Assembly (NCBI GenBank): GCA_963832745.1 | Contig: CAWHVC010000003.1 | Location: 704,001 to 768,000 of the forward strand | DNA length: 64,000 bases | Source of the DNA: Candidatus Bathyarchaeota archaeon | GTDB lineage: Archaea; Thermoproteota; Bathyarchaeia; Bathyarchaeales; Bathycorpusculaceae | Direction: 5' to 3' | Shown here: piece after piece, positions 13,025-39,675 of the stretch | Position numbering within the stretch: the first letter of the stretch is position 1 | Layout: every line of letters starts with the position of its first letter | Notes under the pieces: generated by a model | Databases searched by the model: none | Seen by the model: only the letters and a program-made list of their open reading frames with translations | What the model was told of the DNA's origin: nothing | Position numbers and translations under genes: made by a program

Positions 13025-13693
13025 ATGAAGACAATGAACTACAACGTATTCCACAGATTAATGAAAAACCGCTATGCACTAAGCACAGTCGTCACCACCC
13101 TGATTATCCTCGTCATTTCAGTGCTACTCGCCAGCGTCGTAACTTACTTCGCCATCAACGTCGTAAGCACTCGTGTTCAGGAAGAAAGCTTAGCACTTAA
13201 CAAACAGCACATATGGCTACAACCCCGCAGCAGCACCAGGGACCCAGATTATTCATTAAGCATCACTAATGGTCGTTAACACTGGTGGCAGAGACATCGT
13301 AATTGACAAATTAGCAGTTAGAGGACAGGAAAGCCCCTGGAACGATGTCTGACGAAGATGGAAACGGTAAATTCGTAGTCTACTCGATCACAACAAACCC
13401 AATCTCTGAAGATATGGGATTCGTTGGAACATTCACCACCACTCCAGTAGCCCCTGAAGGTGAGCCAGCAGCTGATGACGACAACGTAGTCGTGTTCGGT
13501 GCATCAAACTATCTAATGCGTGTAACAGATAACGACTTGTCCTTCCATCAGGAACACAATGATCCTCTACATAATCAACCCAGACTCAATCACAATCAAC
13601 GACATTGGCCTAACAGTCAGCATCACACTATACACAGCACAAGCAATGTACTACCGAGAAGCAAACGTCCAAGCATACACAGCATTAGCATAA
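13025..13693 (+). pseudogene. Type IV pilin 1 (frameshifted as assembled)
   Basis: Class III signal KNRYA|LSTVVTTLIILV, NTGGRDIVIDK and AMYYREANVQAY lie in different frames; AGGAGGTGA RBS; breaks near 13265 and 13545. Confidence 0.8.
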
Positions 13694-13808
13694 ACATAAA
13701 ATCCCCTCTTCTTTCGTTTTATTTTTTCTTTTAAGTGTCATAGATTTTTCTTACACACAAGTTTACTTATTCCAAATTAACGTTAAGTGCTTTTTAAAGT
13801 GAAAATCT

Positions 13809-14401
13809 ATGAGAAAGTCTACTTAGAAATCGTTTGGCTTTAAGTACAGTTGTTACAACTCTAATTATACTCGTTGTTTCAGTGTTGCTCGCTGGTGTCG
13901 TAACCTACTTTGCTATCAATGTTACTAGTACTCGTGTTCAGGAAGAAAGCTTGCATCTTACCAAGCAACATGTTTGGTACGATGAGAGCCCACAGTGAAT
14001 CTGTTGCAGCTATTATGATCATTAATACTGGTGGTCGTGATGTTGTCATTGATAAATTAACAGTCAGAGGCCAAGAAGTGGCATGGGCAGGAAATCCACA
14101 AAAAGTCTACTACGCAATCACTACTGAATCAATATCAAGCGACCTTATATTCCACACATCAGCTCAACTTGCAGTCGAGGGTGGAATAGATCTAAAGGTT
14201 GACTTAACAGAACTCCAAGCAGTAACAAAACTCGGTGCAGCAGCAAGTGACTTAACTTTGCCATCAGGTCAAACAATGATCATCTACATTACAAGTCCTG
14301 ACAGCATCACAATCAACGACATTGGTCTAACAGTTGCAGTCACAGTTTTCACAAGCCAGGCTATGTACTATAAAGAAACTAACGTTCAAGCATACGTCTA
14401 A
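13809..14401 (+). pseudogene. Type IV pilin 2 (two +1 frameshifts as assembled)
   Basis: 5' ~170 nt nearly identical to pilin 3; extra A after ATGAGA and a shift near 13985. Confidence 0.8.
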
Positions 14402-14592
14402 TCCATTTAAGTTATCCTTCCCCCCCACACTTTCTTTTCTTTGCACTAAAATTTTTTTGTTTATTTAATTCAAACTAGTTTATTCTTTGATTCTAAAGCT
14501 ACTCTAAAACTTCTGTGCTGCTTGTTGTAAATTATTTTACGCACAAATTATCATATCCAAAACTATCGTACTTGTTTTTAAAGTGAAAATCT

Positions 14593-15186
14593 ATGAGAAG
14601 TCTACTTAGAAATCGTTTGGCTTTAAGTACAGTTGTTACAACTCTAATTATACTCGTTGTTTCAGTGTTGCTCGCTGGTGTCGTAACCTACTTTGCTATC
14701 AATGTTACTAGTACTCGTGTTCAGGAAGAAAGCTTACACCTTACCAAGCAACATGTTTGGTATGATGCGGATGGCGAAATGTCTCAAGCAGCTATTATGA
14801 TCATTAATACTGGCGGTAGAGACGTAGTCATTGACAAGCTTACAGTTCGAGGCCAAGAAATTACTTGGGCAGGTGCCAACCAAAAAGTTTTCTATGCAAT
14901 CACAACTCAATCAATCTCTGAAGATTTACCATTCCTAGTCTACGACCCAACAGCAGACCCAGTAGAAGACATGGCTGACGGTGACCTTACAGGCGTAGGC
15001 GACGGAAACATTGTTATTGCAGCGGCAACAAGCGACATAACTTTACCCTCAGGACAAACATTGATAGCTTATATTCAAAGCCCTGACAGCATTACCATTA
15101 ACGACATTGGCTTAACAGTTGCTATTACAGTGTTTACTAGCCAAGCGATGTACTATAAAGAAACTAACGTACAAGCATACGTCTAA
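14593..15186 (+). CDS. Type IV pilin 3 (intact, probable major pilin)
   Basis: RNRLA|LSTVVTTLIILVVSVLLAGVV class III signal peptide; INTGGRDVVIDKL; lacks the archaellin GxGTLIVFIA signature. Confidence 0.85.
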   Translation: MRSLLRNRLALSTVVTTLIILVVSVLLAGVVTYFAINVTSTRVQEESLHLTKQHVWYDADGEMSQAAIMIINTGGRDVVIDKLTVRGQEITWAGANQKVFYAITTQSISEDLPFLVYDPTADPVEDMADGDLTGVGDGNIVIAAATSDITLPSGQTLIAYIQSPDSITINDIGLTVAITVFTSQAMYYKETNVQAYV

Positions 15187-15353
15187 GTCAAATAAACTAA
15201 AATCCCCCCCACACTTTCTTTTTTACATAATTTTAAGTTTGATTATCTTAGTTTGGTTTGATTTTTAATTCAAATCTGTTTTTGTTGTAGAATTTTTTAC
15301 GCACAAATCATCTTATTTCAAATTATCCTACATTGTTTTCAAGTGAAATTAAA

Positions 15354-15925
15354 ATGAGAAAGTCTACTTAAAAATCGTTTGGCTTTAAGTACAGTTGTAA
15401 CAACTCTAATTATCCTCGTTGTTTCAGTGTTGCTCGCTGGTGTCGTCACCTACTTTGCAATCAACGTCACTAGTACACGTGTCCAGGAAGAAAGCTTGAC
15501 ACCTAACCAAACAACATGTCTGGTATGATGAAAATACCGACACGATGCAGCAATTATGATCATTAATACTGGCGGTAGAGACGTAGTCATTGATAAAGTA
15601 TCAGTCGAGGCCAAGAAGTGGTATGGGCAATGTAACACAAAAGTTTACTATGAAAGCACTTCAGCATCAATCTCCGCAGATCTTGACATGTAGCCAAAGC
15701 AACTTAACGCAAAGGTACCTAAACGCACAATCGGTTAGGTCGCGATACATTGGTGACTAAGTCCTGCAGCAGATGACTTAACACTCCATCAGGCAAACAA
15801 TGATACATCTACATCCAAAGCCCAGACAGCATCACAATCAACGACATCGGCTTAACAGTTGCAATCACAGTCTTCACAGCCAAGCAATGTACTACAAAGA
15901 AACCAACGTTCAAGCAGCTAAATAA
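15354..15925 (+). pseudogene. Type IV pilin 4 (multiple frameshifts as assembled)
   Basis: Nucleotide homology to pilins 2 and 3 at both ends; ends ETNVQAAK-stop. Confidence 0.75.
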
Positions 15926-16147
15926 GGTAATCATAAAAAGAACCCCCCCACACTTTCTTTTTTACTCTAAAAATAATTTATTGCTCGAGCGTTTTTTATC
16001 ATGTTTTTAAATCAAATTGCATTTTTCCGGCTTTTTTGGCATACAGATTCACTACTTGTACAATACTTCTGTTACACACAAACAATCATAATCCAAAATC
16101 CAGACCTAAAGAATCAATCAAACAATGGAAAAGGGATTTGGATAGAA

Positions 16148-16993
16148 ATGAAGCTAAACACGTCATTAAGGAAGTTTTGGCGCTCAACAAAAGCGTTGGC
16201 GATTCCAATGACGTTTCTGATTCTTGCTTGTTTCCATGTTATGCATGATCTCAGTAACTTACTATTTTGCGGTAGAAAAAGTAAACAGCCGTGCTTCAAT
16301 ACTAAAAGTTTCCATAGCCAAAGAAGAAATGCTAACGTTTAGCCAGGACACTGTTCCGATTCTTTGGCAGCCTGGCTCAGCATGCACTTTTGAATTCAGC
16401 GATTCAGGCGGAAAACTCAACGTTCAACCCAACAATAACACCTTGACAGTAAACGTTTCAGGCCAAAGCATTTCCAGTGTCCTTTTTAACGAAACAGTGG
16501 GGCAAGTAACTTACGAGTTGCCTTATTCTGGATCAGCGGAAACAGATGTTTACCTTAAAGGCGACAGCCGATCAATTACTAATCAAAGCGGTTCAGTCTT
16601 AACACAATTGAGCATTGCAAACGGTGAAGACCATCCCGAAATTCAGTTACGGTACCGACCAACCGTATTCATACGTGACTGCTAGGTTTAGAGGACGGTA
16701 AAACAGTCAACAATATCCGAGTCTATATAGTTAACTTGAATGCTTCACAAGAATTTGGTTTGTATGGTAAACTACCCATAAAAGCCTCCTGCCTTAACAC
16801 CCAAATATCCACAACCACATACACCGTCACTTCCGCAGTTCAAGCCCTAACTTTTAGTGCAACATTAAACGGAATTACTGGCCAAGTCAACATCCCCATA
16901 GAAACACACCGCCTCAGGCGCTGTCATCAACATACAACTGGTGCAGTCAAGCATTCAAATCGCGAGGTGCCTACTTTAAAGTGCCCTCTATAG
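16148..16993 (+). CDS. Minor pilin-like protein (frameshifted as assembled)
   Basis: STKA|LAIPMTFLIL class III-like N-terminus; beta-rich body split over three ORFs; end approximate. Confidence 0.6.
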
Positions 16994-17427
16994 TGCCATC
17001 CTACATTTACGTACTTTTTGCTTCAATCATCGTGGGAACCATAATAATCGGTGTATGCGGCGTTTCAACATTGGAAATAAAAAACAACGCTGACAAACAG
17101 CAATTATCAAACTTAGCCGATTATGTAACAGCACAAAGCAACATGCTTATTCTGCAAGCAACCAGAGACACAGCAAACTCTACAGTTTATCTTAACTTGC
17201 CCTCAACAATTGGAAACCAAAAATATTGGATCCAAATAGAAAACGACACCTCAAAAGCTTGGGTAACCGCAGGTTTTGGTTCAATTCAAACTAGCAGTCA
17301 ACAGCGAACTTACCTTCCTGTAGATGTTTCTGGTTCAGGCGTTTACACGAGTTATTCAGGAATTGCAGTTTTGAAATGTGAAACTGACGGTTCAAAAGTG
17401 ACTTTATCGATTAATGGAGAAAACTAG
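16981..17427 (+). CDS. Pilus-associated membrane-anchored protein
   Basis: N-terminal TM helix, LNLPSTIGNQKYWI segment, position in the operon. Confidence 0.6.
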   Translation: MPSIVPSYIYVLFASIIVGTIIIGVCGVSTLEIKNNADKQQLSNLADYVTAQSNMLILQATRDTANSTVYLNLPSTIGNQKYWIQIENDTSKAWVTAGFGSIQTSSQQRTYLPVDVSGSGVYTSYSGIAVLKCETDGSKVTLSINGEN

Positions 17428-17428
17428 A

Positions 17429-19009
17429 ATGCCGTTTGGAAAAAAGAAGAATGAAATAGAGGAAGTAAAAGAGAAAATTTCAAGCGAAGACTTAATCGGC
17501 TATTTAGGCATCCAAGGCTGCCGTGTACCTGAAGGGTACGTTCAAATAGAAAGTTACCCCCTTAAACCGCCTTTTTCGTACGCTTGGATTTTCCAGGATG
17601 AATCTGAAGGCAGCTACTTCTACGTTGTTGACGAGTTATCCTTGTCAAAAACTGAACGTGAATGCTACAAACGGTTAAAGAACATTTTAGAATACGAACT
17701 CAAGGCTCCACGGATTGATGAAACGCTTGAAGCATCTTTCCGCAGACAACTTCCCAGTATAATAGAAGACCACAGTACCGTGCTCGCTGACACTGACAGT
17801 GTAGGCATAAAAAAAATCAACTATTTTCTTGAACGTGACCTGATTGGTTACGGCAAAATTGACGGTTTAATCAACGACCCCTTCATTGAAGATATCAGCT
17901 GTTTAGGTGTAAACAAGCCCGTCTACTTGTGGCACCGCAAATACGAAAGCGCCAAAACCAACGTAATGTACACTGACGAAGAAGAACTCGACGATTTCAT
18001 AACAAGAATAGTGCACCGCCAAGGAAAACACGTCAGCATCGCAAGACCAATCGTAGACATTACATTGCCCGGTAAACACCGTCTTGCAGTAGCGTTTGGA
18101 AAAGAAACTACTCCCGCAGGAACAAGCTTTACCATCAGAAAATTCCGAGACGACCCAATCACAATCGTTGACCTAATCATGAATGAAACAATCGACGAAA
18201 ACATAGGCGCATACCTTTGGCTGCTTATGGAAAACAAAATGTCCATGATGATTGTGGGTCCCACGGGCGCTGGAAAAACAACTGCATTAAACGCGATTGC
18301 CTGCCTGGTTAAACCGGACTTCAAAATCATCTCGGTTGAAGAGGTTTCAGAAATTAATTTGCCTCAAGAAAACTGGGTTTCCACAATTGCCCGTCCCGGT
18401 TTTGGAGGCGACAGCGAAGGCGAAGTAACCCTTTATGACCTTATCAAGTCGGCTGTGCGGCATCGTCCATCACTTATTGTTGTAGGCGAAATTAGAGGTG
18501 AAGAAGCATACGTGCTTTTCCAGGCCTTAGCAACGGGTCACGGTGGTTTATGTACCACTCACGCTGAGGATGTTGAAACTGTCGTTCAGCGTCTTACCCA
18601 GCCTCCGATGAACATTCCTCAAGGTATCTTGCCGTTAATGAACTGCGTCATCGTCGTTAAACAGGTGAAAACGCCAAACTACATTGCTCTTGACCGAAAA
18701 ATCACTGCAAGAAAATTTGTCCGCATTTCAGAAATCAATCAAAGTGGTGGTATCGTTGACTCCTTCAATTGGAACGCTAACACTGACACTTTCCAACAAA
18801 ATATTGACGAAAGCTATCTGCTAAATAAAATCGCAAAACACCTTGATGTACCATTTAGCGTAGTCCTTCAAGAGCTGGAACGAAGAAAACAGATACTTCT
18901 GAAAATGGTTGAAAAGAACCTTCGAGACTTCAAGAGTGTTCACCGGGCATTAAGCAGCGAAATTAACCTTCCAGATACTGAAGTTGCAGAAAAAGCTAGG
19001 GAGCATTAA
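17429..19009 (+). CDS. Type IV pilus assembly ATPase (VirB11/ArlI/AapE family)
   Basis: Walker A GPTGAGKT, Walker B IVVGEIRG, TGHGGLCTTHA His box, FTIRKF. Confidence 0.92.
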   Translation: MPFGKKKNEIEEVKEKISSEDLIGYLGIQGCRVPEGYVQIESYPLKPPFSYAWIFQDESEGSYFYVVDELSLSKTERECYKRLKNILEYELKAPRIDETLEASFRRQLPSIIEDHSTVLADTDSVGIKKINYFLERDLIGYGKIDGLINDPFIEDISCLGVNKPVYLWHRKYESAKTNVMYTDEEELDDFITRIVHRQGKHVSIARPIVDITLPGKHRLAVAFGKETTPAGTSFTIRKFRDDPITIVDLIMNETIDENIGAYLWLLMENKMSMMIVGPTGAGKTTALNAIACLVKPDFKIISVEEVSEINLPQENWVSTIARPGFGGDSEGEVTLYDLIKSAVRHRPSLIVVGEIRGEEAYVLFQALATGHGGLCTTHAEDVETVVQRLTQPPMNIPQGILPLMNCVIVVKQVKTPNYIALDRKITARKFVRISEINQSGGIVDSFNWNANTDTFQQNIDESYLLNKIAKHLDVPFSVVLQELERRKQILLKMVEKNLRDFKSVHRALSSEINLPDTEVAEKAREH

Positions 19010-19014
19010 ACTGC

Positions 19015-20557
19015 ATGACCAAAGCTCCCCCAACCGGCGCATTCGGCAAATTAATTGCAAAACTAAGTAAAGCAACAAGTGAAGAGAAAGAAAACATTGA
19101 ACACGAACTACCCTTCGTGGTAATGATTTTCACTTTGTTAGCTGCCAGCGGAGTATCACCTTACGACAGCTGGAAAAAACTGCGCAAACTATCCTTTTTG
19201 CCTACTTTTAAAAAGGAAGCAGATGAGATAGTTCGGCAGGTTGAGGTTTTAGGGAAAGACCCCCTGACCGTTATGCGTTTGCGTGGGGAATATACAGAAT
19301 CGAAGCTTTATCGCAACTTTTTGGGCGGTTTTGTTTCTTCAGTGCGTAGCGGCGGCAGAATGGTTGATTACTTAAAAAGCGAGTTAAAAACAATTTTTGA
19401 GCTTCGCCATGGAGAAATTACTCGTTCGGTTGAAAAGATAGCTACGCTTGTTGAGGCTTACACTGTCATGTTGATTGTGGTGCTTTGCGTTTACATCCTC
19501 TTTGTGGTGTTTCTCTTCAACAAACACTTTAGACTTGATGGGAGGTATGGCACTTCCCAAATCAGACATCATGACGTATCTTATTGCATTCGTGTTCATG
19601 CCAGTACTTTCAGGCATATTCATCCTCATAGCACATAACATGCAGAAAAGCGCTTTCAGCGACTTAAAAGACCTCTACAAGAAAGCAGTAATCATCCTAG
19701 CCGCTGCTTCAGCTGCACTGCTGGTTTTCGCCTTTATTCCCAACTTAACTGACGCAATCAAGCCAGCTGGTTTGCCTGAAGTAGTCACGATTGGCTTAGT
19801 TGTTGCCTCCGCTATACCTGCAATTCAATACCGAAGAATCGCCACCGTCAACTATAACGCTGAAGACGCCATTCCCTACTTCATACGCGACATCACTGAA
19901 TCGCACAAAATCGGGCTTTCACCAGAAAAAAGCATTATCCAAGCAACCAAACGCAAAAGCTACGGGCACTTCTCTAAGTATCTTGAACTTATGCGTAGCC
20001 AAATCGAATGGGGAGTACCCATCCGCAAAACCTTTGCTAACATTCGCAAAGAAATCCGAAGCTGGTTTGTAACTGTAAACTTTGCAATGATGATTGAAAC
20101 AATCGAAATCGGTGGTAACTCAACCGAATCCTTGGAGATTCTTGCTGAGTATAGCGAAAAAGAACGTGAACAACAAATTAACAAACGTGGCCTGTTAAAG
20201 CCATACATTTTCTTAGCTTTAATCTGGAGTGTACTTATCGCTGTCACTACAGTCATTGTTTCTTTAACTACCACAATGATGACTGGTGTAGTCAGCGATA
20301 GCCTCTCAAGTGTAGCAACATATGCAATGCAAGAAAACCTACGCATCTTCTCTGTTGGCATCATACTGCAATGCTGGATTTCTGGCTTTTTCATTGGAAA
20401 AATCAGTGAAGGAAACTTCGGCGCTGGCTTCCAATACTCTGCAATACTTGCCCTAACCGCTTATGTGTCACTAGTGCTGTCTCAAATGCTGCTCGGTGGA
20501 ATGTTCGGTTTCGTTCCCTCAGGCGCCCTTAACCCTTCTGGAGGAGGCATAACATAA
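19015..20557 (+). CDS. TadC/ArlJ-type membrane platform protein, two T2SSF-like halves (frameshift near 19510)
   Basis: IEHELP..LAASGVS and EDAIPYFIRDI..IGLSPEKSI repeats, multiple TM helices; one extra base joins the two ORFs. Confidence 0.85.
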
Positions 20558-20560: not shown

Positions 20561-21595
20561 GTGCCTACAACCGCAATTGATGGCTTCTTTGCCTGTACCC
20601 TCCTTGTCACGGTAACTCTCATAGTGATTGCTTCATTTGCAGGGGTAATGCAGACAAACCTTGAAGTCCTACAAGGAGTAAACGACCAGAATTACCTCAA
20701 AACAACCGCTGAACGTTTGGTTTGTAGTGTAGGTTCTCCTGTGAATTGGGGCTCAACTAGTGTGGTACCTGATAGTTTTGGTTTAGCCAAACAAGGTGGA
20801 ATCGCTTACGAGTTAGATATCGACAAAGTTTGCAGGTTAAACAGTCAATGCAGCAGTACATTGTTGTTAGACGATGCTTCAAAAGCCGCAAGGCTCTACG
20901 ATTTAGCCTTTGGAATAACCATCACTCAGATGCTTACAATAAATATTAAGCCAATAGGCAACACAACAACTGAAAACGTAACAACCTATAACTTCCAAGT
21001 TTTCACAGCAGCAAACCTTGAACCCACACCCGCAAACCTGCAATGCTACATTATTCAAACAAACCAGGTGAGTAGCGTTTCAACCTCAACTTCAAGCAGT
21101 GGCATAGGCGCCTTTAGTTTTGAGTTGCCCGACTCAGAATCGGGACCAGTTCTACTTGCAGTATTTGCCAAAGCAAACATTGACGAACGTTTAACCGCTT
21201 ATCAAACCTACAGTTTTTCCCACATTTCAGGTGAAGAGGCAAACCAGCAGGTTCTATCTCTAAGTCCTCTAAATAACCAATTAACCATTAACATAAACCA
21301 GCCAGAAACAACCATAAACAAAGTCTACGCCTTCTCCTTTAGTTATCAATCACAACTTACCCAAAACTCTAACGGCACTTACATAATACCAAAATACCTA
21401 GACAAAAGTCCAATAATGCTTGTTGCAGCAGGCCAAAGTCAAAGCGTTGGCTTCCTGGAATTTACTAGTTATCCAACTGTGCCTTTGACTTTCGGTTCAA
21501 ACTTTGCCAATACGGATCAGAACGCATTCATTTACACTGTAACAATTAATGATGTTCTTTACAAGTTAACCATAACTCTTGGAGGTATCACATGA
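20561..21595 (+). CDS. Pilus accessory/minor pilin-like protein
   Basis: N-terminal hydrophobic helix, GSPVNWG motif, beta-rich body; operon position. Confidence 0.6.
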   Translation: MPTTAIDGFFACTLLVTVTLIVIASFAGVMQTNLEVLQGVNDQNYLKTTAERLVCSVGSPVNWGSTSVVPDSFGLAKQGGIAYELDIDKVCRLNSQCSSTLLLDDASKAARLYDLAFGITITQMLTINIKPIGNTTTENVTTYNFQVFTAANLEPTPANLQCYIIQTNQVSSVSTSTSSSGIGAFSFELPDSESGPVLLAVFAKANIDERLTAYQTYSFSHISGEEANQQVLSLSPLNNQLTININQPETTINKVYAFSFSYQSQLTQNSNGTYIIPKYLDKSPIMLVAAGQSQSVGFLEFTSYPTVPLTFGSNFANTDQNAFIYTVTINDVLYKLTITLGGIT

Positions 21596-29479: not shown

Positions 29480-29645
29480 GGCAAAGCCTTTGCAAACCAG
29501 CGCCTTTGGTCCCAATACATGCTCGATAACGGCTGGTCCTTGGGACACAATAACGATTGATGGTCATCGAAGTAAAATCAACGCTTGCACGCAAATCAAA
29601 CCTGTAGCTTACACAACATACAAAACAACCGATGAGTCGTCGCAA

Positions 29646-31567: not shown

Positions 31568-32428
31568 TTGGTTGAAACCGTAAAAACTCAAACGCAACCG
31601 GTTGGAGACTTTTTAGAAAACATGTCTTTTCAACGGTTAAAAAAGAACTTGCAGGAAAAAGTGGGTGTTAACTTTAGCGGTTACCGTGACGAGTACCTGA
31701 AACGGCGCATAAATATTCGTTTACGAGCGACTAACAATGAAACTTTGGGTCGTTACCTTCAGTATCTAGCAAAAAACCCTGATGAATATCAAGTATTGCT
31801 TAACGAAATCACTGTAAACTACACTACATTCATGCGTGACAACGACGTTTACCATTACCTTGAATATCAAGTGTTGCCCAAGATTTTCCAGAAGACGCCC
31901 GTACGCATTTGGAGTGCTGGCTGTGCTTCCGGAGAGGAGCCTTACTCACTTGCAATTTTAACGCATAAAATTTTAGGCGATAAACTTGCAAACCACAATG
32001 TCACAATTTACGCTTCAGACATTGACAAAGATGCCTTATCAAAAGCTGCCAAAGGTGAATATCAAGAAAAACAGGTTCAAAGTCTAAACGGGTTAATTGT
32101 AGATAATTACTTCACAAAAGAAAATGGTATCTACAAAATAAAAAATCATGTTAAGCAACTGGTTCGTTTTGAAGAATTCGATTTGATGAAGTCAGCAGCT
32201 CACACTAACCTTGACTTAATTTTGTGCCGTAACGTTATGATTTACTTTTCACGTGAAGGACAACAGAGAGTTCACATGAACTTTTACAATGCATTAAGAG
32301 ACGGCGGCTACTTTGTCAGCGGTAAAGCAGAAATTCTAAGTGGGGAACCAGCCGCAAAATTTGTGCCCATTGATATTAGAGCAAGGGTTTACCAAAGACA
32401 AAACGTTGCTTTTCAAATCAACGCTTAA
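31568..32428 (+). CDS. cheR: Chemoreceptor methyltransferase CheR
   Basis: RIWSAGCASGEEPYSLA, ASDID, LILCRNVMIYF. Confidence 0.96.
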   Translation: MVETVKTQTQPVGDFLENMSFQRLKKNLQEKVGVNFSGYRDEYLKRRINIRLRATNNETLGRYLQYLAKNPDEYQVLLNEITVNYTTFMRDNDVYHYLEYQVLPKIFQKTPVRIWSAGCASGEEPYSLAILTHKILGDKLANHNVTIYASDIDKDALSKAAKGEYQEKQVQSLNGLIVDNYFTKENGIYKIKNHVKQLVRFEEFDLMKSAAHTNLDLILCRNVMIYFSREGQQRVHMNFYNALRDGGYFVSGKAEILSGEPAAKFVPIDIRARVYQRQNVAFQINA

Positions 32429-32548: not shown

Positions 32549-34648
32549 TTGTCTTTAGATGATAATGACCAGTATATGCAATTATTCGTTGAAGAAGCTA
32601 AGGAACATATTGAAACATTAACAAAGTCACTATTAATTCTGGAAAAAGATCCTAAGAACCAAGAAATAGTTAACATGCTTTTCCGTTCAGCTCACACCCT
32701 TAAAGGTAGTTCAGGAATGATGGGTTTTAAGGACTTTCAAGAATTAACCCACGCGATGGAAGACATTTTTGACGGTATGCGTAAAGGCGAAAAACCAAAC
32801 AGCATCCTTGTTAGCACACTGCTTGAATGTGTTGACTCCCTGTCTACAAGGCTTGAACAGATACAAAACAAAATTGAAGAAGAAATCAACGTTGCAACTC
32901 TCAAACAAAAACTGCACAGCGTTTCAGAGTCCAACATGCCCCCTCAAGTAGAAAAACCTGCTGAAACAAAAACCCTCAATCCCCCCGCAGAAAAGCCGGT
33001 TGTTCCAGAAGTCAAGTTCGAGTTTGATGATAACCAAAAAGAAACAATAAAAAACGCTCAAGACATAGGTGAAAGCTGCTTTGTTGTTGACTTGAAATTC
33101 AGCGGTGATTGCAACTTTAGAAACCTGCGAGCTAGTATGCTTCTGAGTAAGATGGGCGAAATTGCTGACATTATTAAAACGTTGCCGGACCAAAAAGATC
33201 TTGATGAGCAAAAGCTCGGTTCAGGTTTCAAACTGGTAGTAACAACCAAGCAGAGCGATGCTGACATTGCTAAATGTGCCCAGCAAGTCTGTGAAGTTGA
33301 GCAGGTAAACGTTTTCCCCTTAGACTTAAACACTCCAGCAACTCCAGTAGCCCCTGCAACCATAACAGAAGCACCCGTTACTTCTCAGGCTTCGGTAGCC
33401 CCTGTTGAACCTAAAAATGAAACCCAAATTCACGCTGGCAGCCAAAACTCTGAAGAAGCCAAGGTTCTCTCAGAAGTACGTAGCGCCCAAACCGTTAGGG
33501 TAAAATTTGAACAACTTGACAAACTTATGAATTGGGTCGGCGAGCTTGTAATTAACAAAATTGCGTTGCTACAAGTAACTGCTGATAATCGTAATGAGAG
33601 CTTAAAACGTATCACGGAAAACATTGACCGTTTAACCGCCGATTTGCAAGACCTTGTTATGCAGGTACGAATGGTGCCTGTTAGCCAAATTTTTGACAGA
33701 TTCCCCCGTTTAGTACGGGACCTTTCAATGAAGAAGGGCAAACAAATCGATATAGTTATGGAAGGCAAAGAAATTGAAGTTGACAGAACAGTTCTTGACG
33801 AAATCGGAGAACCCCTAATTCACTTACTAAGAAACAGCATTGACCATGGCATCGAACAACCCACAGAAAGGCAAAAGAAAGGCAAAAAACCAGGCGGTAT
33901 AATCAAGCTGTCCGCGTTAAGAAACGGCGACCACGTAATCATTGAAATCGATGACGACGGAGCAGGCATTGACCCAGAAAAAATCAAAGAAAGCGCCATT
34001 CGCAAAGGCTTTATGAAAAAAGAAGAACTCGACAAAATGACTGACGATCAACTCATAAACCTAATATTTATGCCGGGATTCTCAACCGCTAAAGAAATCA
34101 CAGACACCAGTGGACGCGGCGTAGGTATGGATGTTGTAAAAACAAAAATTGCTGCTCTTGGCGGAACCGTTCATTTAGATACTGAAATCGGTAAAGGCAC
34201 AAAGACAAGTATCAAGTTGCCATTAACGTTAGCGATTATTCAGGCGATTCTGGTGAAAGATGCTGGACAAACGTTTGCGATACCTACAAGCCAAGTGTCT
34301 GAGATTGTGAAGTCAAGAAAAAACCAGGTGCAGTCCTTAGGAAAAACAGACGCTATCGTTGTTAGAAACCATGTTATCCCTGTTGTGCATCTTCACAAAA
34401 TGTTGGGGTTGGATGGCCCTGACGAGGAAGACCTTGAGTTGCTCATAACTTATTTGGGTGATGAGGATTCCAAGCTTGGTGTCGTAGTGGATTCAGTGCT
34501 AAGACAGCAGGACATACTTGTTAAGTCTATGAGTGAAACGCTTTCAGGAATCAAAGGAATCAGCGGCGCCACCATTTTGGGTGACGGCCAAGTAGTTTTA
34601 GTTCTTGATGTAAGACAGTTTACTCACAAGGTTCAAAACAAAGCCTAA
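32549..34648 (+). CDS. cheA: Chemotaxis histidine kinase CheA
   Basis: FRSAHTLKG Hpt, HLLRNSIDHG, DDGAG, GFSTA, GRGVGMDVV, C-terminal CheW-like domain. Confidence 0.97.
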   Translation: MSLDDNDQYMQLFVEEAKEHIETLTKSLLILEKDPKNQEIVNMLFRSAHTLKGSSGMMGFKDFQELTHAMEDIFDGMRKGEKPNSILVSTLLECVDSLSTRLEQIQNKIEEEINVATLKQKLHSVSESNMPPQVEKPAETKTLNPPAEKPVVPEVKFEFDDNQKETIKNAQDIGESCFVVDLKFSGDCNFRNLRASMLLSKMGEIADIIKTLPDQKDLDEQKLGSGFKLVVTTKQSDADIAKCAQQVCEVEQVNVFPLDLNTPATPVAPATITEAPVTSQASVAPVEPKNETQIHAGSQNSEEAKVLSEVRSAQTVRVKFEQLDKLMNWVGELVINKIALLQVTADNRNESLKRITENIDRLTADLQDLVMQVRMVPVSQIFDRFPRLVRDLSMKKGKQIDIVMEGKEIEVDRTVLDEIGEPLIHLLRNSIDHGIEQPTERQKKGKKPGGIIKLSALRNGDHVIIEIDDDGAGIDPEKIKESAIRKGFMKKEELDKMTDDQLINLIFMPGFSTAKEITDTSGRGVGMDVVKTKIAALGGTVHLDTEIGKGTKTSIKLPLTLAIIQAILVKDAGQTFAIPTSQVSEIVKSRKNQVQSLGKTDAIVVRNHVIPVVHLHKMLGLDGPDEEDLELLITYLGDEDSKLGVVVDSVLRQQDILVKSMSETLSGIKGISGATILGDGQVVLVLDVRQFTHKVQNKA

Positions 34649-34675: not shown

Positions 34676-34749
34676 GGGAATATTATAATTAATGGAAGTT
34701 CCCTTTTTAATTATTAACCGTTTTTATTTAATTATTGAAGGGAGCATTC

Positions 34750-35097
34750 ATGGTTGACCATACTGAGGTTAGATCAGAAAACGCGCGAAACGTCATTTTG
34801 AGTTATCAAGACGTAGTTTACTACATTAACCAAGTAAACGTGCAACTTCAAGAAGGCACCGAAAAAGTTAAAGCAACATTTCACGGCAAAAAAATAGGTG
34901 ACAACAAGCCTCGTAATCTTGAAATGGAAATCAGCCAAGCAGCCTACAACGTATTGCTAGATTACGCCAAACTCGACAAGCGTGATATGATGCTTGTTTT
35001 AGAAATCGAGGCAGGCGAAGCTAAATGGTGCTTGATGGATGAGAATTGGTTGAAGAACCAGATAGGTCTAGGTCCAAAACTCAGTTACATAATCTAA
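34750..35097 (+). CDS. Hypothetical protein between cheA and cheW
   Basis: ORF with GGAG RBS; no motif recognised. Confidence 0.7.
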   Translation: MVDHTEVRSENARNVILSYQDVVYYINQVNVQLQEGTEKVKATFHGKKIGDNKPRNLEMEISQAAYNVLLDYAKLDKRDMMLVLEIEAGEAKWCLMDENWLKNQIGLGPKLSYII

Positions 35098-35206: not shown

Positions 35207-35716
35207 ATGGTAGATATCGACAGGAAATCCTCAAGAGAAGAAATGCAGATGCTCACGTTCTCGCTTGACAATGTCTATTACGGCGTTAACGTTCATCAAG
35301 TTAGAGAAGTAAAAAATTTTGAAGGCGTCACACCTGTCCCGTACGCTCCAGCATACGTTAAAGGTGTAACAAACCTCCGTGGCGAGGTTCTTCCAGTTAT
35401 TGACTTGCGTAGACGCTTCGGCATCACAGAACAAAAAGAGAATGAAAGCACTGGCATAATGATTATCGTTCAAGACAAACATCCAATCGGTGTTATGGTT
35501 GACAGCGTCATGGAAGTTTTAACCCTGCCAAAAGACGACATTGAAACAAACCCTGACAGCCTAATTGTTGACAAAAACGAGTCAGTGCTCGGCGTAGCAA
35601 AACATGACAAAGACTTAATCATACTGTTGGATCTCATGAAAGTCGTTTCAAAAGACGCTATCAACCGTATTGAAAACACCAAAGGATTTGAAGTAAAAAC
35701 AGAAAAACAGGCTTAG
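35207..35716 (+). CDS. cheW: CheW
   Basis: TPVPYAPAYVKGVTNLRGEVLPVIDL, GVMVDSV. Confidence 0.96.
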   Translation: MVDIDRKSSREEMQMLTFSLDNVYYGVNVHQVREVKNFEGVTPVPYAPAYVKGVTNLRGEVLPVIDLRRRFGITEQKENESTGIMIIVQDKHPIGVMVDSVMEVLTLPKDDIETNPDSLIVDKNESVLGVAKHDKDLIILLDLMKVVSKDAINRIENTKGFEVKTEKQA

Positions 35717-35754: not shown

Positions 35755-36777
35755 ATGGCGCAAATAAGAGTTTTAGTCGTTGACGATTCTCTGCTTATGC
35801 AAAGGGTACTTTCTGACATTTTAAAACTGGACCCTAGAATATCAGTGATTGACACTGCACGTGACGGTGAAGAAGCAATCGCTAAAATCGCGGCGTTGCA
35901 TCCAGACGTTGTAACAATGGATGTTGAAATGCCTAAAATGAACGGTTTAACAGCCGTACGCAGAATCATGGAAACCAACCCTGTGCCTGTGGTGATGATT
36001 AGCGCTTTAACGCAGCACGAAGCTCAACTAACCTTGAAGGCGTTGGAGTATGGCGCTGTGGATTATGTTCCTAAACCTTCAGGCCAAATCTCACTAAACA
36101 TGGACAGCGTCAAAGACGAACTTATTTCTAAAATTAAAACCGCCGCTTCAGCAAACGTAAGACCCATCAAACTAGTCACTGAGGAAACATTGCCGTCTAC
36201 GATGGTAACTGGAAGTGCCAGCGACAAAATAATTTTTATCGCAGCCTCAACAGGTGGACCACCCGCCATCACAAGTGTTCTGCGAAACTTGCCCAGCGAC
36301 ATACCACCAATCCTAATAGTTCAACATATGCCAAAAGGCGTAACCAAACTATTTGCTGACGGGTTAAACCAAGAATGCAAATTCAAAGTGAAAGAAGCCG
36401 AAGAAGGTGACATGATCCAAGAAGGGCTTGCCCTAATTGCCCCCGGGGGTTTACATATGGTTGTAACAAAAGACGACAAAATCGCTCTGTCTAAGGAACC
36501 CCCAGTTAATTATGTGCGCCCCGCCGCGGATGTTACAATGTTCTCTCTTGCAGACGTTTATGGCTCTAAAAACGTAAGTGTAGTCCTTACGGGCATGGGT
36601 TCTGACGGCGCAAAAGGAGTGGTTGCCATCAAAGGGAAAGGTGGATACACTATTGCTCAGGATGAAAAAACCAGCATTGTTTACGGGATGCCAAAAATGG
36701 CTTTTGAAACTGGATGCGTTGACGTTGTTGTTCCTTTGGAAAGAATTCCAAGGGAAATCATTAAGGCTTTAAAATAA
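35755..36777 (+). CDS. cheB: CheB (receiver + methylesterase)
   Basis: VVDDS, MDVEMP, ASTGG, QHMP, LTGMGSDG. Confidence 0.97.
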   Translation: MAQIRVLVVDDSLLMQRVLSDILKLDPRISVIDTARDGEEAIAKIAALHPDVVTMDVEMPKMNGLTAVRRIMETNPVPVVMISALTQHEAQLTLKALEYGAVDYVPKPSGQISLNMDSVKDELISKIKTAASANVRPIKLVTEETLPSTMVTGSASDKIIFIAASTGGPPAITSVLRNLPSDIPPILIVQHMPKGVTKLFADGLNQECKFKVKEAEEGDMIQEGLALIAPGGLHMVVTKDDKIALSKEPPVNYVRPAADVTMFSLADVYGSKNVSVVLTGMGSDGAKGVVAIKGKGGYTIAQDEKTSIVYGMPKMAFETGCVDVVVPLERIPREIIKALK

Positions 36778-36882
36778 TAAACAATTTTTTAATTAATTAT
36801 TTTTGTTATGAATATCAAATTCATAATTTACTTATAAGCAAATGTCCAAAATGAATGGAGACACGCAGGAGCATTAATCAAA

Positions 36883-38382
36883 ATGGCAGTTGAAATCAAG
36901 GATAAATCGGACAAACGAAACCTGGACCTTGAAAAACAGGTTGAAAGATTAAATAATGAAAATAAACGATTACAAGAAGAAAATAAGCAGTTAGAACAAA
37001 AAATTATTGAGGTTTTAAACGACGCGATACAAGGTGCAGAAGGGACCTCAGCCTTGGCAGATCAAACAATTCAAAACGCTGCTAAAGCCGCGGAATTAGC
37101 CTACAACGCAGAACAATCTGCAGTCAAAGTGGCAGAGTTGGCTTCAAACGCGACTGAAGTAGTAAACAAAGTCATTTTTACAATAAAAAACGTGGAAGAG
37201 GCAGCAAACAAAGTAGCCTTAAGTGCAGACGGGGCAACCAAGTCAACAACTAAAGTAGTGGAAATGGGTAAACAAGCTGCTAACGTTTCTAACCAAATGG
37301 CTATCGGTATGCAGCAAGTCAGCACGGCATCTCAGCAGGTATCAACCGGTGCTCAAAAACTTGCAGACCTCTCACAAGATGCAGCTAGAAGTACTGAATC
37401 ACTAAAAAAAGTCATGGATGATGCAGGCTTAATCGCCAGAGAAGCTTCCGTTGTAACTGAAGAAGCTTTAAAGAAGTCAAAGGAAGCTAACGAGAAAGGC
37501 CAAAAAGGTTTAGTGGCAATCGAAAACATCAAAACAAACATTACACGCGTCTCCGAAGCAGTAACTTCAATGGTTAACTCAGTTGAGCAAGTTGGGGAAA
37601 TGGCTAACTCGGTTTCAGACATTGCGGGTCAAACTAACATGCTTGCACTTAATGCTGCTATTGAAGCTGCAAGAGCAGGCGAGGCAGGCAGAGGCTTTGC
37701 AGTTGTCGCTGACGCAGTAAAAGGTTTAGCAGGTCAATCTAAAATTGCTGCGCAATCATCAATTGACCTAGTTAAAGGTATTAAAGACGCGGGTTCCCAA
37801 ACAAGCAACATTTCCACTCAGTCACAGGCCGGAGCAGCTGAAGGCGCCACAGTGGTTTTAGGTGCAATCAAAGAATCTGAAGGTATAGCCATAATCATGG
37901 GTGAAATGACCGGTAAAGTCAACAACTTGACAAACGGTGTGGAACGTGGACTTGACGCGTTAAGTTCAGTAGTTAAAACTATTGAAGAAGTAGCTAGCAT
38001 AGCTGAAGAAAGCTCCTCAGCATCTGAAGAAGCATCCTCAGCTGTTGAAGAACAAACTGCTTCAGCACAAGAAATGGCTGCAATCGCTAAAGATGTTCAA
38101 GGAACCGCCGAGCAGGTTGAACAAATAACCAAAACCGTTGTTGCGGATGCCCAGGAAATGTCAAAGTTGGCTTTAGGCGTTGTTGGTGACTCTCAACAGA
38201 TCGAAGCGGCCACACAAGAGATTCTGTCTCAAGCAAACGCTGTAGGAAGCAACAATAATTTAGCAGTCAGTGAAATCACCGCTATGGCGGAAGCAACAGA
38301 AAAAATGAAAGCTGAAGTTGAGCAAGCCATTGAGCATCGAAAACAGTTGCTTCAAGAGTTTCTTAACAGGAAAAGCAGCTAA
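36883..38382 (+). CDS. Soluble methyl-accepting chemotaxis protein
   Basis: [27 protein letters not shown] hairpin tip; no TM segment. Confidence 0.93.
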
Positions 38383-38504
38383 ATCTAACTTTTTTCTTTT
38401 TGATTTTTCTTTTAACTCGGTTTAGTGTGTCGTTTTTGTGATAGACAAACGCTATTATGGCAAACTTGCCCTCTTACTGAATTAATAAGCAAAGGTGCCA
38501 GTTT

Positions 38505-39068
38505 ATGGGAACAGAAATTAGAACTTTCGCCACACTTAAAGACATAACCGAATACGTTGTTGACCAAACAGAACAACACCGGGCACTTCATGAAGACTAC
38601 AGCCAATGGCTAGGCACGTTACTTCGGGATTCTGAAATCAGTCACAAAAACGATGAATGGTACCAAAAATCTGTTGCCATGCAAAAAACAACTAAATCGC
38701 CTCCGAAGAAGGCTCCAGAAAAAAAGCCTGCTGGCAAAGGTAAAAAAGGCGAAGAAAACTCAATTTGGGTTCCCTCTGGCAGCATAATGCTTTCATCCAC
38801 CGATCAAGGTCAAGCTGAAATCCTATTTGAAGCAATAGAAAAGATTGGCACAAAAATTCAGGACCTTGAAAAACTTAAGGGTTCAATTCAGCAGCTTGAA
38901 CGGATTGGTTTAGGAAAAAACGTTAGTTATATCCTTTACATTGAAGATGATGTGCCAAAAAAGATTGTGGTTCAACCGAAAAATAACAACAGTGATGGCT
39001 CGTTTAAGTATGCTACAGAAATGTCCATTCAAGCGTACGTTAGCGAACCAATCGCAAGCACAGGTTAG
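38505..39068 (+). CDS. Hypothetical protein with Lys/Pro-rich linker
   Basis: 187-aa ORF, helical segments flanking KSPPKKAPEKKPAGKGKK. Confidence 0.7.
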   Translation: MGTEIRTFATLKDITEYVVDQTEQHRALHEDYSQWLGTLLRDSEISHKNDEWYQKSVAMQKTTKSPPKKAPEKKPAGKGKKGEENSIWVPSGSIMLSSTDQGQAEILFEAIEKIGTKIQDLEKLKGSIQQLERIGLGKNVSYILYIEDDVPKKIVVQPKNNNSDGSFKYATEMSIQAYVSEPIASTG

Positions 39069-39216
39069 CCACGAGATGTTCTCAATGCTTCCACTTTTTT
39101 GTGGAGCAGGAATCTACAAAGATTAAATATGAATTAACCAAAAAAATAGTGGGGAATAAAAAATCTGCCCAAAATACGCTGTCTCGGGCGTCACGGTTAC
39201 CGTTCGAATTGATAGC

Positions 39217-39675
39217 GTGCAGGCTGAAAGAACCAGTCAACTGTTCCCCAGTGCAGACATGTTTTTTGATATAAACGCTAAATTGGATGAGCAAAAGAAA
39301 GGCGCAAGCGACACAATTTTAGGCTTCAACCTTGTCATTTCAACTAAACCCAGTATCGTCAAATACTTGGTGGCCGGCACAGTAACTCTTGAAGGGCCAA
39401 CGGCAGACATCAAAAAGAAGCTTGAACCAAACCCTAAAACCAAAATTCCCCAAATACTCTTCGCCATTTATCAAGATGTGTTCAACTCCATCTACATCTT
39501 AGCCTCCATACTAAACGCGCCTTACCCGCCCCCTGACCTACTGCATCCAATGGCAGAAAAAATCCAAATACTTCCTTACACGCCGCCACAGCCGGAAACC
39601 CCGCAGTCAGCTGCAGCAGATGCGACAGAAGTTACTGCCGCTCCTGCAGGGGAAGCGCCAAAAGCAACCGCATAA
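39217..39675 (+). CDS. Hypothetical protein, possibly SecB-like fold
   Basis: Beta-strand pattern followed by a helix and LNAPYPPP; frame is open upstream to ~39160 so the start is uncertain. Confidence 0.6.
   Translation: MQAERTSQLFPSADMFFDINAKLDEQKKGASDTILGFNLVISTKPSIVKYLVAGTVTLEGPTADIKKKLEPNPKTKIPQILFAIYQDVFNSIYILASILNAPYPPPDLLHPMAEKIQILPYTPPQPETPQSAAADATEVTAAPAGEAPKATA

Follow-up and report, generated by a model that had tools for sequence, protein, structure and literature searches.

A 64-kb window of a Bathyarchaeia genome (the whole stretch of DNA analysed) contains three linked modules: a type IV pilus (T4P) operon (13025-24489, + strand), a vWA-MoxR AAA+ gene pair, and a che operon in which cheY-D-C-C-R-A-x-W-B-MCP span 29111-38382 (Table 1). 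Taken together, these are perhaps best explained by CheY-P modulating the pilus by a lineage-specific route, an explanation that we advance tentatively; that Che governs the pilus is plausible but unproven. All the genes listed in an earlier note on this DNA were found where it had placed them. Its interpretation stood as regards a non-archaellum T4P, a complete che set, the lack of a recognisable CheF in the window and the reality of the gene 'x', but the adjacency of pilus and che genes proved to be only partly conserved.

Table 1. Features of the pilus, vWA-MoxR and che modules
Feature	Position	Strand	Evidence or remarks
Pilin paralog 1, broken (at least three frame changes, one in-frame stop)	13025..13734	+	Three-frame reading; Pilin_N 22.5 bits on N-terminal ORF
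Pilin paralog 2, one frameshift between N-terminal helix and globular part	13834..14401	+	Pilin_N 23 bits
Pilin paralog 3, intact, 197 aa; candidate major pilin	14593..15186	+	Pilin_N 24.3 bits, UpsA 19.1 bits, both sub-threshold
Pilin paralog 4, broken (several frame changes, stops)	about 15330..15930	+	Three-frame reading
Pilin-like, class III-type N-terminus (STKA-LAIPMTFLIL), two frame breaks read through	16148..16993	+	No family
Membrane-anchored pilin-like, 148 aa	16981..17427	+	DUF7266 20.8 bits, sub-threshold; ortholog adjoins ATPase in L013
T4P assembly ATPase, not ArlI	17414..19009	+	T2SSE 114.5 bits; FlaI model 352.5 bits
Platform protein (TadC/PilC type), frame change near 19510	19015..20557	+	Two T2SSF domains
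Membrane-anchored pilus accessory protein, 344 aa	20561..21595	+	No family; orthologs in L001, L003, L004, L009, L013
Minor pilin-like, 142 aa (KRGQ-VRIIEAFF)	21592..22020	+	Orthologs in 5 loci
Minor pilin-like, 255 aa (NQGQ-VLIVAAL)	22023..22790	+	Orthologs in 5 loci
Beta-propeller surface protein, signal peptide and C-terminal anchor; possible adhesin	23164..24489	+	SBBP-repeat lipoprotein model 31.5 bits, sub-threshold; orthologs in L001-L004 and L013
TrmB-type regulator, effector-domain protein	24536..25072	-	Regulator_TrmB 17.5 bits, sub-threshold
TrmB-family winged-helix regulator	25083..25436	-	TrmB 54.2 bits
vWA-domain protein, 570 aa	25592..27304	-	VWA_2 24.7 bits, CobT_C 17.6 bits, both sub-threshold
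MoxR/CbbQ-type AAA+ ATPase, partner of vWA protein	27320..28492	-	AAA_5 73.4 bits, CbbQ_C 46.9 bits
u153, conserved orphan heading che transcription unit, divergent from MoxR	28514..28975	+	No family
cheY	29111..29479	+	Response_reg 97.7 bits; CheY_Halo 126.6 bits
cheD	29490..30134	+	CheD 102.8 bits; homologs' alignments begin at residue 53, nt 29646
cheC copy 1	30131..30868	+	CheC 79.4 bits
cheC copy 2	30878..31543	+	CheC 41.5 bits
cheR	31568..32428	+	CheR 175.9 bits
cheA (Hpt, P2, dimerisation, HATPase, CheW-like)	32549..34648	+	Five Pfam domains; CheA_Halo 537.9 bits
x120, orphan; conserved 115-aa core from nt 34750	34735..35097	+	Directly 3' of cheA
cheW	35207..35716	+	CheW 116.7 bits
cheB	35755..36777	+	CheB_methylest 210.2 bits; Response_reg 87.4 bits
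Methyl-accepting chemotaxis protein (MCP)	36883..38382	+	MCPsignal 88.8 bits
u187, orphan after MCP	38505..39068	+	No family
u152, orphan	39217..39675	+	No family

The assignment of the filament system to the non-archaellum T4P is supported by the agreement of the ATPase, the platform protein, the pilin fold and the missing ArlH/F/G/C/D/E/X; the pilus failed every archaellum test that was run (ATPase models and PDB, platform, pilin model), which bears out the earlier description. The operon has, as described there, one ATPase and one platform gene. Identity of the ATPase with ArlI/FlaI was rejected because its score against the NCBI FlaI model lies well below the cut-off of 550 bits, and since all of its 58 nearest 50%-cluster representatives likewise fall short of it (292-456 bits), FlaI as top match is generic. 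In PDB the protein aligns over its full length with A. fulgidus GspE-type ATPase 2OAP (residues 13-521, 334.8 bits) and over residues 130-508 only with S. acidocaldarius FlaI (226 bits). JGI names this ATPase 'FlaI', a generic label. The platform gene is interrupted by a single-base frame change at a junction that is in frame in the orthologs of three related loci, L004, L009 and L013. The intact L013 ortholog (one 526-aa ORF) scores 106.5 bits with UpsF, 96.4 with BasF and 58.1 with ArlJ; judged by these scores, the platform is closer to UpsF/BasF than to ArlJ.

The four tandem pilin paralogs share the N-terminus NR(L/Y)ALSTVVTTLIILV and combine an invariant core with a hypervariable surface stretch. 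Their sole family matches are sub-threshold (Pfam Pilin_N 22.5-24.3 bits, cut-off 25.2; NCBIfam UpsA about 19 bits), and no archaellin family in Pfam or NCBIfam matches them, so that the claim that they lack the archaellin signature stands. The GQ-type minor pilins noted previously are likewise present, two of the three pilin-like genes at 20561-22790 having the N-termini KRGQ-V and NQGQ-V. Pilin paralog 3 has 3761 homologs at E<=0.001, and its predicted model (N-terminal helix plus beta-sandwich, pLDDT 77) matches the filaments of the Aap pilus (8Q30), Pyrobaculum pili (6W8U and 8FK7), Iho670 (5KYH) and the S. solfataricus pilus (6W8X). The matches listed include no archaellin, and on this model the filament would resemble adhesive archaeal pili such as Aap, not the archaellum.

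The che set is complete and in the order previously given, all of its matches lying far above the Pfam cut-offs. No CheF, archaellin or Fla/Arl family was matched in Pfam by any of the 139 ORFs of the window (36 plus 28, and 75 further stop-to-stop ORFs of at least 60 aa), in keeping with the earlier finding that no arlC/D/E, arlF/G, arlH or cheF is recognisable there; nor was any Arl or CheF family matched by 188 flanking ORFs from 18 related loci. The window's sole RecA/KaiC-type protein (46734-47444) was considered as ArlH and rejected: it scores 142 bits as RadB versus 32.8 bits with the ArlH model, whose cut-off is 215 bits.

Does this Che system act on the pilus? Because neither CheF nor an archaellum switch is present in the window and the pilus is the sole filament machine nearby, CheY-P would most likely modulate pilus assembly or dynamics, and through these surface motility or attachment. 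The route would be lineage-specific, with x120, u153, u187/u152 and the vWA-MoxR pair as candidate output parts. This proposal draws on gene neighbourhood, since the pilus and che genes, 4.6 kb apart as measured to cheY, belong to separate transcription units between which lies a block of four opposite-strand genes, an arrangement that itself argues against coupling. Two further observations count against it: Pfam and NCBIfam searches of the window found one ATPase and no retraction-type paralog, and it is x120 and vWA-MoxR, rather than the pilus, that accompany che most consistently.

The earlier note had staked its interpretation on pilus-che adjacency being kept in relatives. It is kept in six of 25 Bathyarchaeia che loci and missing from 16, which have 6-10 kb of upstream flank; the other three are too short to decide. 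The six represent two architectures, L001-L004 and L009 having the window's order and L013 a rearranged, inverted one with intact pilus genes, and the TrmB-type regulator pair travels with the pilus genes in all six. In a CheR tree the window groups with five of the adjacent loci in a clade (85/86) that includes the undecidable L005 as well, and L013 stands apart. The adjacency label changes three times on this tree versus an average of 6.2 for shuffled labels (3 of 500 shuffles gave as few). The orphans u187 and u152, with which the che operon of the window's clade ends, have orthologs that were found only in the pilus-adjacent L001-L003 and L009 (4/4), which likewise favours a link between pilus and che; the Atlas look-alikes of u152 are unnamed clusters from Bathyarchaeota and Nitrososphaerota. 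On the other side, some non-adjacent loci are no more distant from the window, by CheD identity (70-73%), than the adjacent L009 and L013 (68-69%).

It is possible, though we think it rather unlikely, that the che system steers an archaellum encoded elsewhere, via CheF or another adaptor also encoded elsewhere, and that the pilus neighbourhood is neutral and inherited in one clade. This would fit the lack of adjacency in 16 of the 22 informative loci, whose flanks hold housekeeping genes (a point against coupling in any case), and the situation in Candidatus Bathyarchaeota archaeon A05DMB-2, where an ATPase homolog bearing that organism's name (P0017, identical at 81%; longest contig of 26,237 bp) and che (L017, on a 68,562-bp contig) are on different contigs. 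cheF and arl genes may lie elsewhere in the present genome. Passages of three reviews tie archaeal che to the archaellum and CheF to ArlCDE (PMC7289035, PMC10117864, PMC13705601), and 'flagella' genes are recorded in Bathyarchaeota MAGs (PMC7110647). However, the window and the flanking ORFs scanned from 18 related loci had no Arl or CheF family match in Pfam, proximity is kept in two different architectures, and the 'FlaI' labels on Bathyarchaeia ATPases fall on this non-ArlI clade. The cultured Bathyarchaeum tardum, albeit of another lineage, is described in PMC10477458 as having neither appendages nor motility.

A che output unrelated to any filament, for example protein remodelling or gene expression, acting via x120 and a vWA-MoxR-u153 module with the pilus as a bystander, seems unlikely to us, although the linkage of these genes speaks for it. 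x120 follows cheA in 17 of the 18 Bathyarchaeia loci with a complete cheA and has 318 homologs, all the named ones from Bathyarchaeia; it matches nothing in Pfam, NCBIfam or PDB. That it is a real, conserved member of the che operon, as the earlier 'x' implied, is thus supported. The vWA-MoxR pair is the immediate upstream neighbour of che in 14 of 25 loci, with or without the pilus (MoxR identity 80-99% in the 14), 13 loci have a u153 ortholog (column identity 65% on average), and MoxR and u153 diverge around a short shared intergenic region. Inspection of the operon's MCP, too, revealed no evident membrane segment. That said, the other che clade (nine loci: L014, L015, L017-L023) has neither vWA-MoxR nor u153, so the module cannot be a universal output. 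The operon also has the full complement of adaptation proteins (CheB, CheR, two CheC and CheD) that typifies taxis systems. A vWA and GvpN-like ATPase pair is tied to thaumarchaeal T4P loci in passages of Makarova et al. 2016 (PMC4858521), which would reconnect the module to pili.

Least probable, and compatible with the other readings, is decay of the pilus locus into pseudogenes, which would preclude coupling here whatever the ancestral state. Breaks (at least 10 disruptions at 13025-19550) affect three pilin copies out of four, a minor pilin and the platform gene and, if real, make the pilus defective in this organism. The ATPase, the accessory genes downstream and every che gene are intact, as are the L013 orthologs and those visible in L001 and L003. 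Frame breaks also occur, however, elsewhere in the window, in a beta-helix surface protein and in the housekeeping gene for endonuclease III, and the intact pilin copy is identical to database protein P0271. Moreover, similar pilus-gene breaks in the complete-chromosome relative L009 point to indel errors in the consensus, to which tandem, strain-variable pilin genes would be prone. The strong conservation of the pilin and ATPase families (67-100% and 74-92% identity, respectively, among the 120 clusters listed for each) is an argument that the machinery works in this lineage.

We found no description in print of Che control of this pilus. If CheY-P does modulate it, chemotaxis may steer a pilus without CheF, the usual archaeal adaptor; the non-filament reading would instead recall the bacterial 'alternative cellular function' class. 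Also in favour of Che control of the pilus is a four-residue insertion that all 21 aligned CheY sequences have beside the phospho-Asp loop and that the CheY proteins of T. maritima and P. horikoshii lack.

The window is archaeal in content, encoding a formylmethanofuran-H4MPT formyltransferase, CDP-archaeol synthase, AglB/STT3 and a family B DNA polymerase, and its closest relatives are all Bathyarchaeia. An earlier note had described a complete che set without CheF beside a non-archaellum pilus, and had proposed an undescribed output module. Its pilus-che observation is real, and its gene calls and che gene order are right: the che core (MCP, CheW, CheA and CheY, plus the adaptation enzymes CheB, CheR, CheC and CheD) is complete, all Pfam matches being far above cut-offs. 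The pilus operon and che are 4.6 kb apart.

Features of the window (coordinates in nt; T4P, type IV pilus)
Feature	Coordinates	Strand	Remarks
B12-binding radical-SAM genes	3-4394		three in tandem
Stand-alone receiver protein	4401-4763
Block 1	13025-24489	+	T4P operon
Pilin, third copy	14593-15186		197 aa, intact
Pilin-like gene	16148-16993	+	two frame breaks
Pilin-like gene	between the 16148-16993 gene and the ATPase gene	+	148 aa
Assembly ATPase	17414-19009	+	T2SSE domain
Platform gene	19015-20557	+	T2SSF domains; two reading frames in window
Three accessory/minor pilin genes	after the platform gene	+	membrane-anchored; GQ-type N-termini in two of three
Beta-propeller surface protein	last gene of the pilus operon	+
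Block 2	24536-28492	-	two TrmB-type regulators, 570-aa vWA protein, MoxR/CbbQ-type AAA+ ATPase
Block 3	28514-39675	+	u153, cheY, cheD, cheC, cheC, cheR, cheA, x120, cheW, cheB, MCP, u187, u152
Endonuclease III	42301-43006	+	split across two frames
RadB	46734-47444
OST3/OST6-like membrane protein, AglB/STT3, GT4-family transferase	48048-54462		less than 30 kb from pilin genes
Beta-helix surface protein	61281-62754	+	C-terminal membrane anchor; two overlapping frames

Block 1 has the generic parts of an archaeal T4P, namely a secretion ATPase, a polytopic platform protein and pilins with class III signal peptides; a Pfam scan of the window ORFs found no prepilin peptidase. Four pilin paralogs with the N-terminus NR(L/Y)ALSTVVTTLIILV stand in tandem. 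Their family numbers 3761 proteins at E<=0.001, several contigs having more than one paralog; some homologs are named 'type IV pilin' by NCBI, and identity with the window's copy is 67-100% across the 120 homologs listed. When 34 sequences are aligned, the ~90 N-terminal and ~50 C-terminal residues hardly vary and the ~50 between them are hypervariable, which is how a filament subunit should look if its core is buried and its exposed surface diversifies. The model built from 34 homologs (pLDDT 77.4, pTM 0.67) is a helix plus a beta-sandwich. Its filament matches are Aap (8Q30, E 3.8e-4), two Pyrobaculum pili, Iho670 and the S. solfataricus pilus (E 4e-4 to 1.4e-3), all with low TM-scores (<=0.47) and ranked below generic beta-sandwiches; no archaellin is among the matches listed in this fold search. 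The OST3/OST6-like protein, AglB/STT3 and the GT4 transferase could be glycosylators of the pilins.

The filament system of the window is a non-archaellum T4P by every test available, as the earlier note had it. The best NCBIfam model for the ATPase is the FlaI equivalog, at 352.5 bits against a cut-off of 550, which places it outside ArlI. None of its 58 neighbours (representatives of 440-720 aa among the 150 nearest 50%-cluster representatives) reaches that cut-off either, their scores being 292-456 bits, so FlaI comes out on top for any archaeal secretion ATPase. The best PDB match is the GspE-type ATPase of Archaeoglobus fulgidus (2OAP, 334.8 bits), which covers residues 13-521 with the N-terminal domain included; S. 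acidocaldarius FlaI ranks below it with 226 bits over the C-terminal part only (residues 130-508). The sub-threshold score, the similar neighbours and the N-terminal match together led us to reject a divergent ArlI, a candidate raised by the top NCBIfam model and by the JGI name FlaI. For the platform protein, its intact ortholog in a related locus (L013:11477-13057; L numbers denote che loci of relatives) scores 58.1 and 53.3 bits with the ArlJ models (cut-offs 400 and 550) and is thus not an ArlJ; UpsF (106.5 bits) and BasF (96.4 bits) score above ArlJ, all models being below cut-off. As to archaellin, the pilin has no Pfam or NCBIfam family match and no PDB sequence match. The statement that neither CheF nor arl parts are recognisable also stands, Pfam finding no ArlH, ArlF/G, ArlC/D/E, ArlX or CheF among the 139 ORFs of the 64-kb window. 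The lone KaiC/RecA-like ORF, considered as ArlH, is RadB (32.8 bits with the ArlH model, cut-off 215) and was discarded.

Is there an archaellum, with cheF, elsewhere in the genome? Pfam detected no CheF in 188 flanking ORFs from 18 related loci, and none was found in the short che loci of Baldrarchaeota (L025) and Hadarchaeota (L047). Flagella genes are stated to be widespread in Bathyarchaeota MAGs in a passage of PMC7110647. Relatives of the window's ATPase are named 'FlaI' by JGI and generic secretion ATPases by NCBI, and the statement may rest on such labels of non-ArlI ATPases. We consider it less likely than not that an archaellum and cheF are encoded elsewhere. The same labels call for a warning: motility of Bathyarchaeia has been inferred from 'FlaI/flagella' annotations, and these may denote this pilus ATPase.

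Among the NCBIfam models, haloarchaeal ones fit CheA and CheY best. CheA has one Hpt domain in the standard five-domain layout, and the MCP of the operon is without an evident membrane segment. CheY keeps all the phospho-acceptor residues (D8, D9, D53, S85/S86 and K107) and has four extra residues right after the MP that follows the phospho-Asp, in 21 of 21 aligned sequences (alignment A4, with T. maritima and P. horikoshii CheY as references). The insertion region, MPPGxKAKDG, is shared by the Baldrarchaeota CheY of L025, and the altered loop would be consistent with a different partner. A predicted complex of CheY (alignment A4) with x120, the orphan encoded after cheA (alignment A1), was run without controls and scored 0.00, which speaks neither for nor against binding. 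Elsewhere in the window, ~25 kb from the che operon, the radical-SAM genes are followed by a receiver protein 38-46% identical to CheY orthologs of Bathyarchaeia loci.

Conservation of the pilus-che adjacency, one of the checks that the earlier note had proposed, was examined by a CheD-core scan of genomes, one for each GTDB species. This returned 80 loci: 25 from Bathyarchaeia (L001-L024 and L036), one from Baldrarchaeota, one from Hadarchaeota and the rest from bacteria at <=49% identity. The nearest CheD relatives returned beyond Bathyarchaeia are Baldrarchaeota, Hadarchaeota and many bacteria (Riflebacteria/Ozemobacteraceae, Bacillota, Synergistota), Nitrososphaeria and haloarchaea being absent from a list that depends on exact peptide patterns and is not a phylogeny. 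Flanks were read by tblastn with the window's proteins and by Pfam (149 ORFs in 11 loci and 39 ORFs in 7 loci). Adjacency was borne out in six of the 25 Bathyarchaeia loci, in two arrangements, but is absent from 16 others, in which 6-10 kb of upstream flank is without pilus homologs and holds housekeeping neighbours; L005, L011 and L036 have <3 kb of upstream flank and are uninformative. The window's gene order recurs in L001, L003, L004 and L009, and in L002 the contig stops at the beta-propeller gene. L013 has the pilus genes and their TrmB pair in inverted orientation after cheR. In a CheR tree of 24 rows the window falls in one clade (support 85/86) with five of the six adjacent loci (L001-L004 and L009) and the uninformative L005, and L013 groups elsewhere, with L016 and L006. 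The adjacency label needs 3 changes on this tree; when labels are shuffled the mean is 6.2, and 3 of 500 shuffles gave so low a number. Because related rows share labels, this statistic measures clustering, not selection. No other observation argues as strongly for a functional link as the proximity that has survived rearrangement in L013.

Of the 18 loci with a complete cheA, 17 have the orphan x120 after it, the exception being L007, and x120 is present in L036 too. Its core is 115 aa with 29 invariant positions, and the family has 318 members at E<=0.001; among the 120 homologs listed, every name given is a hypothetical protein of Bathyarchaeota/Bathyarchaeia. It has no Pfam family (best single-member E 0.0025) and no NCBIfam match, and its profile has no sequence match in PDB. 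Its structural model matches no PDB fold at E<=0.001 (best E 0.045, TM 0.33) and nothing in the Atlas. CheF structures are reported as deposited in PDB (7OD9 and 7OVP, in a passage of PMC9126983) and, given the missing fold match, the x120 model does not appear to resemble CheF. It is of note that in L023 (16260-20118) a D5-type primase and a tyrosine integrase lie between cheA and the x120 homolog and resemble an integrated mobile element. Homologs of x120 and of the ATPase each occur on contigs of 84,674 bp, and those of x120 and the pilin on contigs of 355,429 bp. This hints that x120 shares a contig with each of them in other assemblies, but equal size is not proof of identity, and we do not count the coincidence as evidence.

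The vWA protein and the MoxR/CbbQ-type ATPase (vWA-MoxR) lie upstream of che in 14 of the 25 loci, pilus present or not, and u153, the orphan heading the che unit, in 13. Both x120 and vWA-MoxR thus appear tied to che more tightly than the pilus is. The orphans after the MCP gene, u187 and u152, are found solely in pilus-adjacent loci (L001-L003 and L009). The u153 profile gave chance-level matches only in PDB (E >1), the vWA protein just a weak match to another vWA chain (E 0.22), and u152 only unnamed clusters in the Atlas. The nine loci of the other che clade (L014, L015 and L017-L023) are without vWA-MoxR and u153 and instead encode, on the opposite strand just upstream of cheY, a conserved coiled-coil protein of 122-161 aa with an acidic tail and no family. 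Seven of these nine have no cheW, cheB or MCP gene in the locus at all; all three are retained in L014, and L021 is truncated inside cheC. In L006 (4873-9133) two glycosyltransferase and two radical-SAM genes lie between u153 and cheY. A che output unrelated to filaments and running through vWA-MoxR/u153, a reading that the occurrence of the pair in loci with and without a pilus would favour, seems to us improbable. A similar pair, of vWA and a GvpN-like ATPase, is reported in a passage of Makarova et al. (2016, PMC4858521) to be strongly linked to thaumarchaeal T4P loci of subclade 4A, and vWA-MoxR is for this reason a candidate che-pilus bridge.

Are the pilus genes of the window intact? Only the third tandem pilin copy is: copy 2 has a single frameshift, copies 1 and 4 have several frame changes each, and copy 1 has an in-frame stop in addition. 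The platform gene has a one-base frame change near 19510, since its ortholog in L013 is one 526-aa ORF and the junction is in frame in L009 and L004 too. For the same reason its two T2SSF ORFs were rejected as the "two platform proteins" of subsystem 4A. The endonuclease III gene is also split (one ORF covers positions 2-37 of the Pfam HhH-GPD profile, and the next covers positions 66-107 and has the Fe-S motif) and, this being a housekeeping gene, assembly indel errors are suggested; the beta-helix protein has another likely indel. The pilus ORFs are likewise broken in L009, a complete-chromosome relative. The excess of breaks in the tandem pilin genes would be compatible with either consensus indel errors or pseudogenes. 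Decay of the pilus locus in this genome, a reading compatible with any other, we rate as unlikely.

Our preferred reading, offered tentatively and at somewhat less than even chance, is that CheY-P modulates pilus assembly or dynamics, acting through x120, u153, u187/u152 or vWA-MoxR or, by an alternative route, directly at the ATPase or platform. A fuller version is more doubtful. It supposes that a single lineage of Bathyarchaeia has switched its entire Che pathway from the archaellum to a non-archaellum T4P, and that CheY, with its lineage-specific insertion next to the phosphorylation site, acts through orphans that belong to no known family, namely x120, u153 (together with vWA-MoxR) and u187/u152. 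If true, the locus would be the first case of an archaeal pilus under chemosensory control, and its output module would not depend on CheF. The interpretation of the earlier note is a reasonable hypothesis with moderate comparative support; the locus combines known kinds (Che pathways and archaeal T4P), and its output module is possibly new.

To our knowledge, the sole established target of archaeal chemotaxis is the archaellum, reached via CheF. Reviews, in the passages concerned, have archaeal che act on the archaellum by way of CheF and ArlCDE, and they record che systems for Euryarchaeota and Thaumarchaeota (PMC7289035, PMC10117864, PMC9126983). Makarova et al. (2016, PMC4858521) state, where they treat the matter, that nothing shows other archaeal T4P to be under Che control, and in a passage of PMC9680633 che regulation of archaeal pili is mere speculation. 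Nitrososphaerota archaella are described as without ArlX and ArlCDE in passages of PMC13705601 and PMC10117864, and the output problem would therefore extend to the sister lineage. The sections of PMC13705601 that place subsystem 4A and Aap-like systems in Bathyarchaeota do not mention che alongside, and in the paper on a complete Bathy-6 MAG (PMC11697101) the words motility, pili, archaellum and chemotaxis are all absent. Full-text searching found no published description of this che-pilus linkage; the genome-by-genome supplementary tables of PMC13705601 and PMC4858521 may list such loci. A CheF-less che operon beside a non-archaellum pilus gives archaeal pilus-based taxis a specific candidate that can be tested, and it points to a few orphan proteins as possible parts of a new CheY output. 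Bathyarchaeia are stated to be among the most abundant sediment archaea (in the abstract of PMC10477458), so the way they locate substrates and surfaces is of ecological consequence.

How does the locus compare with known systems? With the Che-CheF-ArlCDE-archaellum system of Halobacterium, Haloferax and Methanococcus it shares a full Che core and a filament machine of the same T4P superfamily. The CheF adaptor consists of two PH-like domains and a CheY-binding tail. The window, in contrast, is without CheF, ArlC/D/E, ArlF/G, ArlH and archaellin, and its ATPase and platform protein fall outside the ArlI and ArlJ models; it has instead a CheY with a 4-residue insertion by the phospho-Asp loop, and the orphans x120 and u153 within the operon.

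Subsystem (or subclade) 4A is reported in Bathyarchaeota in passages of Makarova et al. (2016, PMC4858521) and Sivabalasarma and Albers (2026, PMC13705601), with accessory genes downstream of the platform gene, a remotely PilY-like adhesin and two platform proteins; neither source draws a che link to 4A loci in these passages. It is defined by arCOGs (pilins arCOG11238/arCOG08836, adhesin arCOG03511; layout described in PMC13705601). The likeness here is by gene layout, not arCOG assignment, and includes a beta-propeller protein in the window as a parallel to the PilY-like adhesin; the difference is that the window has a single platform gene where 4A has two. The Aap pilus of Sulfolobus acidocaldarius and related adhesive pili are akin through the low-scoring filament matches of the pilin model, but there is no sequence-level match, and AapX-type or Fe-S accessory genes were not seen in the window (Pfam); Crenarchaeota are stated to be without che systems in a passage of PMC7289035. 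The best solved relative of the ATPase, 2OAP, would indicate only that it is a non-ArlI archaeal secretion ATPase.

The Pil-Chp system of Pseudomonas aeruginosa is built on a different plan. It has a multi-Hpt CheA (ChpA) with a receiver domain, the receiver pair PilG/PilH, the membrane receptor PilJ and the retraction ATPase PilT. Here CheA is single-Hpt, the operon has one CheY, the MCP is soluble and there is one ATPase, which sets the locus outside Pil-Chp, and the machine is archaeal and only distantly related. In both, however, the genes of a Che-type pathway lie next to those of a T4P machine, and Pil-Chp serves as the working analogy for the function proposed here.
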